This document shows positions 47,103 through 55,061 of a stretch of DNA of 64,000 bases, piece after piece. Position 1 is the first letter of the stretch. Every line of letters begins with the position of its first letter. This stretch comes from Candidatus Obscuribacter phosphatis (GTDB taxonomy: Bacteria > Cyanobacteriota > Vampirovibrionia > Obscuribacterales > Obscuribacteraceae), in assembly GCA_017303615.1 (NCBI GenBank), contig JAFLCK010000026.1:4357-68356 (forward strand), given 5' to 3'. The notes under the pieces are model-generated. The model was not told the DNA's origin and made no database searches. It was given only the letters and a program-made list of their open reading frames with translations. The translations under genes were made by a program, and so were the position numbers.

Positions 47103-50100
47103 CTATAGTTCTAGTTCGAAGAATTTGTTTGCCATATGCACCAAGTTGCGGTTGAAACCATAGGCGAGAGCTTCTTCCCAAGCTTTCTCGGCACTTTGTC
47201 TGTGTTGCCACATTCTGTAGAGTCCGATCATTAGACCGGTGCGATCTCTGCCAAATTCGCAGTGTACATAGACCGGAATGCCTTCTTTATTGGCCCGGTC
47301 CATGAGGGCTAAGAACTGCTCCACTTGGTCGGCAGTCAACTGTTTGTCGGCGCTGGTGGAAAGTCCGAGGGGATGATATTCCAAGGTGTCGTACTTATGT
47401 GAATGGGTGGACTTTAGCCGCTCTATATACTCTTGTTCTGCGCGGGGCGAAAGAGTCTTGTTGCGAGGGGTGGCCTCAAGTCTGAGATTGCCGTCGCTAG
47501 GGGCTCTCAGATCGATGATGATGCCGCCGTTATTGGCGGCGATTATTTCATCCAGCTGCTCTCTTGTTCCAGAGCCACCTCTTGTTACTAGTTCATCTAC
47601 CCTACCGGCATTTTGCGGACCATATTCCAAAAGCTGACGCTGCAATCTGACCGGGCTTTCCGAGTGGGCTCCGGCACGGTCTAGAACCGAACCCATTAGA
47701 CGGTTGAATTCATCAGGATTATTGTTGGGCAGCATATGCGGGTAAATCATGCCGCTGACCAGCGGTGATTTGCTCCACTGCGCTTTCTCAGACTTTGCTG
47801 TTAAGGCTTCTAAAGCCTCTGGCGTGGCCAACTCTTCCCCTTTCATTCTTACAAGACTGGCTCTTACTGCTTGTTTGAAATCTGGACGGGTGTCGTTCGC
47901 CACCACCAGCTGTGCTAGTTTTTGCTCGCCCTTGGTGGCCAGGTTGTGTCTATTTGCAGCAAACTCGACTAAGCCTTCGGTATGGGCATCGATGGTGCCG
48001 ACCACTGCTCTTGTGCCGTCGAAGCGCTTGGTTAGATCTTCTACAAGACCGGCATGCTTGATAGCTGAACTGCCGGAGTAAACGCAGTCGTCCAGAATGA
48101 CAAAGGTTTTGCCTCTTAGTTCCGCCGGTTCATGCAGGTCGATATAGCTTCTGGTCATATATTGACTGCGCGAATTTATTTGTCTGAATATTTCGGTGAC
48201 GAATAGACCGCTGCCTTCACCGTCTCCATCGACAACATAGATAAAGTCTTCAGGGTTGCGTCCGGCATGTAATTTGTCGGCCAGTCCTTTGGCTCCCCTA
48301 TAGAGATCTCTTAGTGATACTACCTGCGATGCTTCCAGAAAAGCTTCTGCTGTGGCATGGGCGCGGTCTTGTTCCATGCGCAAGATGGCAAGCAGGGCGC
48401 GCTCTTTCAGAGCCTCTTCTTCTACGCTCTCGTCGGCCAGTAGTCTTTTGATTGCCGCCCTATCATCTGCGCTTTGGCTGGTGGTCGGCTCTCTCTTACT
48501 CATTCTTTCTTGAGCAATTCTCTTGAGCTTAGCCTCAAAAATATCAGGTGCTATCTCTGCTTTGGCTATGTCCATAAAATTGAACTTATCGTCAAAGTCG
48601 GCAAAGGCTTCAGCCAAATGGGCTTGACCTCTATTGATCAGGTCTTCGGCTTTTGAGCCGGCCACATTTTCGGCTCTGGTCAAAAGAACCATGTTGGCAG
48701 TCGGTGTTTCCATGGTCGAAGGTGAATGAATATCCACCGAGATGCCACTTCTCTTTCTAAAGGCATAGGCTAGAGCCCTGCCGGCGTCATCATCATTGAC
48801 ATAAACAGAGACTATTTCGGCATTGCGAAAGAGTGCTTCGGTCTCATTTGGTTTAGCTACTCTTATGAAAGAACGATCTGCCCCGCTTCGGTCATGAGCC
48901 CTCAAGGTCTCTACTAATTGGTCGATCTTTCGATTAAAACCAGACATGGTCAGGAAGTCTTTGTCTTCTTCCAAAACTTCTCTGAGGGCACGAACTTCAT
49001 TGGGTGAAAGTTTGTCGAGGGCGCGGTTCAAGGTGCCTTCGCTGACCACTTCGGCTCTATGAAACATTCCAAACAATTCAGCCACGTGCTCGGATCGACT
49101 TTTCTCACCTACATCTTCTATACCTTCTCTCAACCTGGCTAGAGCACGGGCCCTGTCTAAAACCATTGCTCTATCGGCTTGACTGAGACTATCCAGTGAC
49201 TCGGGTTCAAAATTCTTGAATATTTTGCCAGTGATGGCTGTATTATTCGTCAGCCCACCATCTTCTCTAGAGGGCGTAGCCTTGAGGGCTTTTACCAGTA
49301 CAGCCGCTCTTTCTTTGCTGCTCAGGGTGTCCAGTCTGCTGCCTACAACGACTTCACTTAAGGCCTTTTGTAGAGGCTCGGCTTTTATTTTGTCTTTAGC
49401 CATGCGGGCGATGGTATCGTCCGGCATAGCTCTAAAAAAGTCTAGATACTCTTTGCTTTTATCGACTTTTGAGGCGCCGCTTCTTTCTGCGATTTGAATT
49501 AGCCAAGCATGACCTGTATTTTCGTCTATTTCGCCAAGCGCCCCTCTTCTTTTTACTTCGCTAAGCAAGTTGTATCTGAATTGACCATCAAACTGCTGCG
49601 CTCTCAAGGCTTGATTCAAGAGCTTTATATCGGCTCTTTGTAGATTATTGCCATGCATGAGCAGATCGTTCAAATAAGGATTTCCACTATCAAGGCGGAA
49701 TCCTGGTTCGTCAATTCGGGCGGACATTCTAGAGACAGCGAAAGCCTTTAGGTCATCGGCAAGTCCTAGATTATGTCTTTTGGCATCACCGGCTCGCATT
49801 TCAAAGCGACCTTGATAGCTGAGTGTGATTTCGTCATTGTTGATGGCCACTACTTTGAGTGGTGTGCGGTCAAGAGCGCCGTCCGGATGTAATTTCAAAT
49901 TTAGTTCGTCGCCGACTTTTAGATTGCGCTGCGCTTTGCTGGTGGTGGCAGAGAAAGGTAGTTTCTGATTTATAGTCACTCTCTCGAAGTAGAAAGTGCC
50001 GTTCTGGGGGTTGAAATCGCTTGGAGTGCCGGTGTTTTTGCCGATGCCAAGCTGCAGGCGAGGCGGCTTGACCGCTGGCTCTTCGCCCTTCTTTATGCTT

Positions 50101-55061: not shown

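Follow-up and report, generated by a model that had tools for sequence, protein, structure and literature searches.

A giant modular protein of Obscuribacterales with an annexin-repeat front end and an exchangeable phosphoribosyltransferase-phosphatase cassette

The subject of this work is a single giant gene in a 64,000-nucleotide stretch of the genome of Candidatus Obscuribacter phosphatis (assembly GCA_017303615.1, contig JAFLCK010000026.1, positions 4,357 to 68,356 of the forward strand), which is referred to below as the window. The gene occupies positions 47103..55061 of the minus strand, on which all the features of its product described below are encoded, and runs without interruption from an ATG start codon, with an AGGA motif about 13 nt on its 5' side, through 2652 codons to a stop codon. 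An earlier description made from the letters alone (hereinafter the sequence-only reading) presented it as one uninterrupted open reading frame (ORF) with several telling motifs, and all of these are found where that description placed them, namely YHELTHHEH at aa 1407, FVILDDCVYSGSS at aa 2320, IIIDLR at aa 2514 and VHCEFGRDRTG at aa 2599.

When considering an ORF of this length, a check of its integrity is important: could it be an assembly chimera, as the same reading had allowed, or a fusion of separate genes? This possibility can practically be dismissed. Independent assemblies contain collinear copies of the gene, at 98% identity over the full length in P0001 (2656 aa), at 43-45% identity in P0003 to P0005 (2742-2755 aa), and at about 92% identity in the locus L004 (JAIETF010000109.1, from a metagenome-assembled genome, or MAG, of Candidatus Obscuribacterales), where the match extends up to aa 2465, the end of the fetched locus. 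The GC content along the gene (0.47-0.51) is like that of the flanks, and no compositional break is seen within it. Hence, the giant gene is real and not an artefact of assembly. No paralogue was found in the window, and a consensus scan for promoters and terminators around the gene gave generic matches only. Those of its close relatives that bear names all belong to Obscuribacterales or to other Melainabacteria, the non-photosynthetic Cyanobacteriota.

The protein starts with a hydrophilic, low-complexity and poorly conserved leader (aa 1-94, 54780..55061) that carries neither a Sec nor a Tat signal, in agreement with the sequence-only reading: no 19-residue window reaches a Kyte-Doolittle value of 1.2 before aa 885, and the 24 relatives inspected are equally devoid of signal peptides. 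A similar short N-terminal motif, M..[DE]..K.PE.G[GE]..K, was noticed by eye in P0003, P0006, P0010, P0022, P0024 and P0026; it precedes the disordered leader and might serve as a signal for non-classical export or packaging.

The leader is followed by an array of annexin repeats (aa 95-830, 52572..54779), which was delineated with Pfam, with profile matches in the Protein Data Bank (PDB) and with an iterative, family-trained hidden Markov model (HMM) of the repeat. The latter finds five strong repeats, at aa 113-166, 201-252, 442-488, 523-573 and 741-795, with i-Evalues of 2e-12 to 9e-20, and about 4-5 more, degenerate ones between aa 95 and 830. Annexin (PF00191; 32.2 bits against a gathering score, GA, of 25) is the sole Pfam family above the cut-off in the N-terminal half of the protein. 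The query alone matches annexin V in the PDB over aa 661-814 (E 1e-3), and the family profile matches annexin VI in four stretches (E 1.7e-20). By repeat homology, the array thus belongs to the annexin superfamily, and the count of about nine to ten repeats would be compatible with two or more tetrads. The predicted length of some 750 aa was a fair estimate; the repeats were, however, described as four-helix units, whereas the annexin repeat is a unit of five helices (Kodavali et al. 2014, PMC3894181). As judged by eye, the type II Ca2+ motif (GxGT in the AB loop and, some 38 aa further on, an acidic residue) is approached in the repeat 741-795, which starts with GFGGS and has an E/D about 38 aa later; the other repeats either do not have the motif or have it disrupted by insertions.

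Behind the annexins lies a Gly/Ala-rich membrane module (aa 870-1150, 51612..52454), defined by its composition, hydropathy and conservation. The sequence-only reading took it for a hydrophobic block of about 270 aa, of which the enrichment in glycine and alanine holds true, whereas transmembrane-like hydropathy is restricted to aa 886-924 (nt 52290-52406) and aa 1129-1149 (nt 51615-51677). We read the former segment as a probable hydrophobic hairpin split by GGTNLP, and the approximately 200 aa between the hydrophobic segments look like amphipathic helices. The module is present in all 32 of the first-round homologues, and conservation across the family alignment peaks within it (79% identity in the 50-aa window of aa 901-950). 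It is followed by a Pro-rich linker (aa 1151-1214, 51420..51611), which is also a recombination junction, the point at which distant relatives diverge; in P0019, an FHA domain is found at this position.

Next comes a family-specific module (aa 1215-1620, 50202..51419), a putative zincin-like peptidase to judge from the conservation of its motifs and from an AlphaFold2 model. Its motif H1408-E1409-x-x-H1412 (nt 50826-50840) is invariant in 13 divergent copies of the module, down to 18-25% identity, and a Gln three residues past the second His is nearly so. An alignment of nine module sequences shows that F1543 (of an LFG motif), Y1593 and H1597-E1598 are invariant as well, the last three being part of a second invariant motif, Y..YM..HE.DA (aa 1590-1601; H1597-E1598-V-D-A in the query), which resides on a second long helix. 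In the model of a 701-aa multidomain segment (mean predicted local distance difference test score, pLDDT, 78.8), three short strands directly precede a long helix (model residues 192-222), and this helix carries HExxH, as it does in zincins; the invariant H1597/E1598 of HE.DA, about 185 aa downstream, are candidates for the third zinc ligand. The pattern G.I....P...(10)..HELTHxxQ is reminiscent of that of DUF4157. Likeness to a known family, DUF4157 and PVC-metallopeptidase included, did not emerge from the searches, though: Pfam gave no peptidase match, either for the whole protein at E<=1 or for eight module members at E<=10, a profile search of the PDB found no relative, and Foldseek returned nothing significant (best E 0.036 in the PDB and 0.003 in BFVD, TM-score about 0.1), the sensitivity of the latter search being lowered by the use of the whole 701-aa multidomain model as the query. 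The module is, therefore, best described as a conserved HExxH domain and plausibly a zincin; of the earlier assignment, the motif YHELTHHEH stands and the fold does not find support. Two adaptor domains follow (aa 1677-1905, 49347..50033), delimited by the model and by the span of homology: a small beta-rich domain (1677-1756) and a helical one (1768-1905). They are shared with the approximately 2440-aa proteins encoded at the same chromosomal position in related genomes (see below), in which the homology stops at aa ~1900-1915.

The remainder of the protein is a C-terminal cassette (aa 1900-2652, 47106..49364) that recurs in other giant proteins of Obscuribacterales. Its AlphaFold2 model (pLDDT 77.3, predicted template modelling score 0.69) shows, in this order, a helical region, a small alpha/beta sub-domain, a phosphoribosyltransferase (PRTase) and a cysteine phosphatase. 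The sub-domain (aa 2084-2150, 48612..48812) is recognized in the alignment and in the model and bears the conserved motif ALAYxFRKxTGxxVDI. The PRTase (aa ~2243-2470, 47652..48335) is of type I and belongs to the PRTase-CE family (PF24390), which scores 27.5 bits with the whole protein and 30.3 bits with the isolated C-terminus against a GA of 27, and is matched by 10 of the 11 cassette homologues (best E 2.6e-11); the general PRTase model PF00156, with 14.3-16.3 against a cut-off of 26.3, stays below. The loop VILDDCVYSGSS (aa 2321-2332, nt 48066-48101), which would bind phosphoribosyl pyrophosphate (PRPP), was defined from an alignment of 11 cassettes and shows the hydrophobic strand, the two acidic residues and the xxx-[ST]-G-x-[ST] pattern of type I PRTases. 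Within its DDxxxSGxS consensus, D2325, the second Asp (alignment position D426), is invariant in the 11 cassettes and G2330 nearly so; in the model, a strand and then a helix are seen at the loop. A further conserved motif of this region, PHMLPNNN, is located at aa 2441. The order of secondary-structure elements in the model is consistent with the PRTase fold, profile matches to XGPRT and HPRT in the PDB are sub-threshold (E ~0.03), and the top 50 Foldseek matches of the cassette model are phosphatases throughout. With the PRTase-CE score and the loop, the PRTase-like motif of the sequence-only reading is substantiated. Among the anti-phage profiles of PADLOC, the homologous cassette of P0034 matches the PRTase of retron type III-A (PRTase_III-A, 3e-6) and ShosT (E 1.6e-3).

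The last domain (aa 2486-2652, 47106..47606) is a Cys-based phosphatase of the dual-specificity phosphatase (DSP) type, close to Y_phosphatase3 and PTP-NADK, as found with Pfam, PDB and Foldseek alike. Its P-loop, H2600-C2601-EFGRD-R2607-T-G (nt 47235-47264), carries the CX5R motif followed by Thr, and in the 11 cassettes the H, C, G, D, R, T and G of HCxxGxDRTG are invariant. PTP-NADK (31.2 against a GA of 27) and Y_phosphatase3 (26.1 against 22.2) pass their thresholds and Y_phosphatase2 (21.4 against 27) does not, so that only one half of the proposed Y_phosphatase2/3 label can be retained, together with the DSP fold. The Pfam family Tc-R-P DSP, which is known from polymorphic toxin systems, scores 25.4 bits with the whole protein and 27.3 bits with the isolated cassette (GA 27). 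In the PDB, the closest profile relatives are TpbA (E 1.3e-16) and PtpB, also known as MptpB (E 2e-4); Foldseek finds DUSP23, AtPFA-DSP1, MKP5 and Siw14 with probability 1.0 and target-normalised TM-scores of 0.69-0.76, the value being 0.76 for DUSP23 and 0.69-0.75 for Siw14 and AtPFA-DSP1. In the loop about 30 aa before the Cys, the query has STSAD, and the homologues STASG, STAKD, STAEG or EPSN, the alignment being uncertain in this place; if a conserved general-acid Asp is indeed missing there, the substrate could be a phosphoanhydride. Thus, profile searches yielded significant matches for the annexin, PRTase and phosphatase assignments of the sequence-only reading, and it is the zincin alone that they leave unsupported.

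The structural neighbours of the phosphatase include the inositol-pyrophosphate phosphatases of the Siw14/PFA-DSP group and a baculovirus RNA 5'-phosphatase, that is, enzymes that act on substrates other than protein phosphate, and the PRTase-phosphatase pair may accordingly consume PRPP, or may form a phosphoribosylated product and then dephosphorylate it. The pairing itself is constant, both enzymes being present in 10-11 of the 11 aligned cassettes. The suggestion that annexin repeats plus a phosphatase would fit a membrane-targeted activity should be modified in this light: since the phosphatase always comes with a PRTase, the composition of the cassettes argues for a joint, nucleotide- or PRPP-directed chemistry more than for an activity on membrane lipids, which would be the less likely alternative.

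Comparison of the query with its homologues reveals a nested modularity. The region of aa ~65-1150 is found in 32 of 32 first-round matches, the region of aa 1150-1900 in P0003-P0019, and the region of aa 1900-2652, among the first-round homologues, in P0001 and P0003-5 only. In the ~2440-aa proteins P0006-18, one of which is named in its source as coming from Candidatus Obscuribacter sp., the match ends at aa ~1900-1915 and gives way to an unrelated tail of about 530 aa with no Pfam match. In the window, the giant gene has the genes for orf431, transaldolase and an LCP (LytR-CpsA-Psr) protein on its upstream side, and the same holds for L003 (Ca. Obscuribacter GCA_033762655.1, contig JANRLK010000094.1), L004 and L005; the copies in L003 and L005, nevertheless, match the query to about aa 1900 only, and the L003 protein, P0007, ends in the other ~530-aa tail. 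As the same upstream genes are followed by different tails, the C-terminal end, i.e. the cassette, has been exchanged while the gene kept its place in the chromosome.

More distant relatives have kept only the front end of annexin repeats and membrane module, combined with other additions. RHS/YD repeats are on record in P0030 and P0032 (RHS_repeat and TEN_YD-shell in Pfam), are marginal in P0025 and P0037, and are implied by the source name of P0051 ('YD repeat-containing protein'); an EDR1/transglutaminase-like peptidase is found in P0020 and P0028, and an FHA domain in P0019 and P0037. P0020 and P0032 start with a LysM domain that scores above the Pfam cut-off; LysM is normally an extracytoplasmic, wall-binding domain, and its N-terminal placement points to an extracytoplasmic location of these relatives. 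The tails of the five relatives scanned are mostly without a Pfam match. Close relatives, accordingly, combine a constant N-terminal region with unrelated C-termini, as polymorphic toxins do, and the likeness to a polymorphic toxin or multi-enzyme effector that the sequence-only reading had seen in the layout is borne out by the conserved front end, the exchangeable cassettes, and the relatives with RHS/YD repeats and LysM.

The cassette, in turn, has a distribution of its own. An exhaustive HMMER search with the cassette profile among 1.84 billion representatives gave 2071 matches at E<=1e-3, mostly to the phosphatase alone, and 40 at E<=1e-10, the best of which are giants of 1360-6352 aa. 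The succession of PRTase-CE and DSP phosphatase is seen in P0034, P0036, P0037 and P0040; P0037 combines annexin, FHA and a marginal RHS-repeat match with the same PRTase-phosphatase cassette at its C-terminus. The HExxH module is shuffled, too: in P0117 it is N-terminal, in P0040 and P0044 it comes after the cassette, P0035 and P0036 each have several copies, and in these five proteins and P0068 taken together it is placed before, behind or between cassettes. The giants that have source names come again from Melainabacteria, namely from 'Cyanobacteria bacterium HKST-UBA02' and Candidatus Obscuribacterales (the 6352-aa protein included). Judging from these domain architectures, the cassette is a mobile unit that moves between unrelated giant proteins.

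Some members of the family deserve separate mention. In P0043 (6352 aa), P0035 (4826 aa) and P0042 (5781 aa), which stem from Obscuribacterales and related metagenomes, the PRTase-phosphatase cassette is internal; P0035, the one scanned among the three, is dark to Pfam apart from the cassette. About 1 kb downstream of the P0007 gene, L003 encodes a second giant ORF (L003:16291-23344; >3520 aa, running off the locus) with an internal annexin and membrane module that is ~26% identical to aa 234-1102 of the query, so that the two form a tandem pair of family members. An Obscuribacterales-type copy with a front end 58% identical to that of the query is found in L010 (CALRJJ020000025.1), a MAG labelled 'Flavobacterium psychrophilum', which is probably a mislabelled or contaminated bin.

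Taken together, these features appear, by a modest margin over even chances, to be best explained by delivery: the giant protein would be an effector akin to polymorphic toxins that an Obscuribacterales bacterium delivers to a target cell, and its cassette would poison PRPP or nucleotide metabolism. The domain identities, the nested modularity, the syntenic exchange of cassettes and the recurring enzyme pair are observed; to these, we add by inference the export, the translocation across a membrane, the proteolytic release, the substrate and the target organism. In this scheme, the disordered leader and the approximately ten annexin repeats would dock on a membrane containing anionic lipids, as annexins are wont to do, and the conserved Gly/Ala module, with its three moderately hydrophobic segments, would insert into the membrane and help the C-terminal part across. 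These two steps follow a proposal made for annexin-containing toxins (Zhang et al. 2012, PMC3482391) and the fusions known for bacterial annexins (Kodavali et al. 2014, PMC3894181). The HExxH module, with the adaptor domains, may then act as a metallopeptidase by which the payload is processed or set free, as the conservation of its motif would suggest; polymorphic toxins have a releasing peptidase in the same place, between front end and cassette, and the module occupying it here matches no peptidase family. In the cytoplasm of the target, the PRTase and the Cys phosphatase would act jointly on PRPP or on a phosphoribosylated product, the phosphatase pulling the PRTase reaction by hydrolysis of pyrophosphate or by dephosphorylation of the product, and nucleotide metabolism would be poisoned.

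Several findings weigh against delivery. The scan of ORFs in the 64-kb window revealed no genes for a secretion system or a contractile injection apparatus, and neither signal peptides nor known trafficking domains, such as PAAR, LXG, TPS or T9SS, are present in the family members inspected. An immunity gene, a defining feature of polymorphic toxin systems, was not found either: on the same strand downstream, the interval 46400-47103 holds no ORF of at least 30 aa, save for a 34-aa ORF inside a convergent gene, and this convergent 190-aa ORF shows no homology to its positional counterpart at P0004, the sole locus compared. The want of an immunity gene could be tolerated with a eukaryotic target or an inactive precursor; the gene of the RHS-type relative P0032 is followed by same-strand ORFs of 171, 358 and 398 aa. 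The sequence-only reading's notion of a translocated effector is, thus, left without support as far as translocation is concerned, no secretion signal, secretion-system gene or immunity gene having been found. Furthermore, the peptidase role of the HExxH module is backed by neither profile nor fold (Pfam, PDB, Foldseek), the cassette of the query has no match in PADLOC and its PRTase score is barely over the threshold, and, as all named relatives come from Obscuribacterales or other Melainabacteria, there is no experimentally studied homologue among them.

The main rival explanation keeps the protein in its producer, as a defence protein of the abortive-infection type with a latent effector. 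Anchored in the inner membrane, its annexins would sense a perturbation of the membrane or of Ca2+, caused e.g. by a phage, upon which the HExxH protease would free the PRTase-phosphatase unit and the producer would be killed or arrested. Neither a signal peptide nor an immunity gene would be expected of an effector that stays inactive until triggered, and the PRTases closest to the cassette, those of retron type III-A and ShosT, are anti-phage effectors. Variable effector ends on a constant sensor are typical of defence systems, so that the constant front end with its exchangeable tails would fit this view as well; a TPR-CHAT protein and a kinase with leucine-rich repeats are encoded in the same window, if far away. 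However, the RHS/YD repeats and the N-terminal LysM of the front-end relatives suggest an extracellular life, the gene sits in a conserved housekeeping locus, no defence gene was recognised among the ten genes scanned on either side of it, and PADLOC remained blank on the C-terminal cassette, which is the part of the query that was scanned. On balance, we deem self-directed defence unlikely.

A housekeeping role in the maintenance of the envelope or membrane, with annexins engaged in membrane repair or remodelling and with the PRTase and phosphatase being regulatory or metabolic, would be in line with the conserved synteny with transaldolase and the LCP envelope gene, with the GC content, which is like that of the flanks, and with the nature of TpbA, the closest solved relative of the phosphatase (a protein tyrosine phosphatase by its PDB name), which we take to be a regulatory periplasmic enzyme. 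It is difficult to reconcile with the wholesale swapping of the C-terminal 530-750 aa between positional orthologues, with the RHS, EDR1-like peptidase or other tails that the same front end bears elsewhere, and with the movement of the cassette between unrelated giant proteins, and we regard it as still less likely than defence. The match to PRTase-CE also brings to mind the polyvalent proteins of phages and conjugative elements, which are delivered into recipients together with DNA, can contain PRTase domains (Iyer et al. 2017, PMC5512222) and are the setting in which PRTase-CE was defined. The locus, though, is chromosomal and syntenic across Obscuribacterales, the neighbouring genes that were scanned include no mobile-element gene, and a tblastn search with the cassette found no match in 72,556 plasmids or 50,697 phage records, all of which makes an origin of this kind very improbable. 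The delivered effector is, accordingly, the reading that is followed below.

Comparison with characterized systems helps to place such an effector. The annexin domains of PVC-type toxins have been proposed to aid in breaching target membranes (Zhang et al. 2012 Biol Direct, PMC3482391), and Kodavali et al. (2014 PLoS One, PMC3894181) list fusions of bacterial annexins with DUF4157/M90 peptidases, with transmembrane regions and with domains of the colicin D, Ntox3 or lipase type. The combination of modules, which the sequence-only reading did not know as a described one, is therefore not without precedent: annexin, transmembrane region, metallopeptidase and toxin domain have been reported together in other phyla. 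In the toxins of Haliangium, Microscilla and Burkholderiales JOSHI_001 (PMC3482391, PMC3894181), as in the query, annexin precedes an enzymatic toxin domain, often in the company of a metallopeptidase (PVC-metallopeptidase or DUF4157) and a transmembrane region. These toxins differ from the query in having a single annexin (PMC3482391) or up to several (PMC3894181), as compared to about ten repeats, and in their payload, which is an RNase, a lipase or an LF-like peptidase instead of a PRTase-phosphatase pair. In the query, moreover, the HExxH module comes after the annexins and matches no Pfam family, DUF4157 included, the lineage is that of Melainabacteria, and no contractile-injection locus is seen among the window genes scanned. 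With the RHS/YD polymorphic toxins, the query shares the constant N-terminal part and the exchangeable C-terminal toxin, as well as relatives of its front end that match RHS/YD repeats; unlike them, it has no RHS repeats itself and no adjacent immunity gene.

MARTX and the large clostridial toxins likewise unite in one giant polypeptide a delivery region that interacts with membranes, a protease for internal processing and enzymatic effectors; they have eukaryotic targets and no immunity gene. Their likeness to the query is one of functional analogy only, no relation in sequence or fold having been detected, and the protease is a cysteine protease domain in these toxins, as opposed to the HExxH module in the query.

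For the payload, the closest analogue appears to be ShosT, the only PRTase toxin that is understood experimentally. The toxicity of ShosT requires the DD motif of its PRTase and the binding of PRPP, and is assisted by a fused pyrophosphatase, apparently via the removal of pyrophosphate (Pu et al. 2025, PMC11961720; Yang et al. 2026, PMC12961424). In both proteins, a type I PRTase is fused to a phosphohydrolase, which, however, is an N-terminal pyrophosphatase of the Rossmann type in ShosT and a Cys-based DSP located C-terminally to the PRTase in the query; furthermore, none of the ten neighbouring genes scanned is DprA-like, as an antitoxin of this system would be, and the query also falls short of the ShosT model. 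The resemblance would thus be functional, rather than one of membership. The role of PRTase-CE in the polyvalent proteins of phages and conjugative elements has been called 'enigmatic' (Iyer et al. 2017, PMC5512222). These proteins belong to the same Pfam family and are, like the query, very large multidomain conflict proteins; in contrast to them, the query is chromosomal and shows neither MuF nor any other hallmark of polyvalent proteins, and its PRTase is always paired with a phosphatase. The phosphatase, finally, shares the CX5R P-loop and the DSP fold with TpbA, DUSP23/VHZ, PFA-DSP/Siw14 and MptpB; it differs from all of them in forming the last part of a 2652-aa protein and in its obligate coupling to a PRTase.

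In the literature searched, no paper was found on PRTase-CE, DSP-type phosphatases or annexin in Melainabacteria. The family in this lineage, the coupling of a long multi-annexin array to a conserved Gly/Ala module, the HExxH module that is an orphan in Pfam, and the obligate pair of PRTase and cysteine phosphatase as an exchangeable cassette appear to be new with respect to this literature; categorically new they are not, annexin toxins, PRTase toxins and PRTase-CE conflict proteins being already on record. Obscuribacterales are known almost only from metagenomes, and their ecology has been largely guessed from their metabolism. A lineage-wide family of modular proteins of 1.4-6.4 thousand aa, in which a front end or an HExxH module is combined with shuffled enzymatic cassettes, suggests that these bacteria invest heavily in antagonism mediated by contact or toxins. 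Beyond this lineage, the multi-annexin array with its probable membrane-insertion module bears on the old question of the role of annexins in bacteria, the Pfam-orphan HExxH module travels with toxin cassettes, and the PRTase-phosphatase pair extends the idea, derived from ShosT, of PRPP-directed phosphoribosyltransferases as toxins.

A bolder version of the delivered-effector scenario can be contemplated, in which the annexin array and the Gly/Ala module would constitute a self-contained device for membrane translocation, comparable in function to the delivery regions of AB-type toxins, that injects cassettes, with no need for a secretion system, into eukaryotic (algal or protist) or bacterial victims. 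We consider this rather unlikely, if a little less so than the retention of the protein for defence. If it were true, it would imply that this lineage, hitherto deemed free-living, lives by antagonism or predation, and also a new two-enzyme toxin chemistry, with either depletion of PRPP or synthesis of a toxic riboside or nucleotide.

The neighbours of the giant gene are housekeeping genes with no functional link to it. Between it and the LCP gene, 112 bp upstream and on the same strand, lies an ORF of 284 aa (window 55174-56028, minus strand) with no Pfam match; it is conserved at 71% in L004, and tblastn found no counterpart in the other related loci, including L003 and L005, which both keep the LCP gene.

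Further away in the window, several other proteins are of interest in their own right. Positions 6811-9858 (plus strand) encode a 1015-aa protein in which a Ser/Thr protein kinase domain is followed by leucine-rich repeats, a signalling architecture like those of eukaryotes. The 985-aa product of 28101-31058 (plus strand) has TPR repeats and, at its C-terminus, a protease domain of the caspase-like CHAT type, an architecture typical of conflict or programmed-death systems. The segment 12001-16000 may be an acquired island: its GC content is 0.435-0.448, as compared to about 0.50 elsewhere, its GC skew is strongly positive, and the two ORFs scanned in it, 12473-13399 and 14285-15811, have weak Pfam matches only (DUF975 and the DprA winged helix). 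Two more large proteins are encoded on the plus strand, namely, a 978-aa protein (16165-19101), the sole match of which is to the SHOCT-like DUF1707, and a 709-aa protein (34347-36476) with a CAP (cysteine-rich secretory protein) domain.

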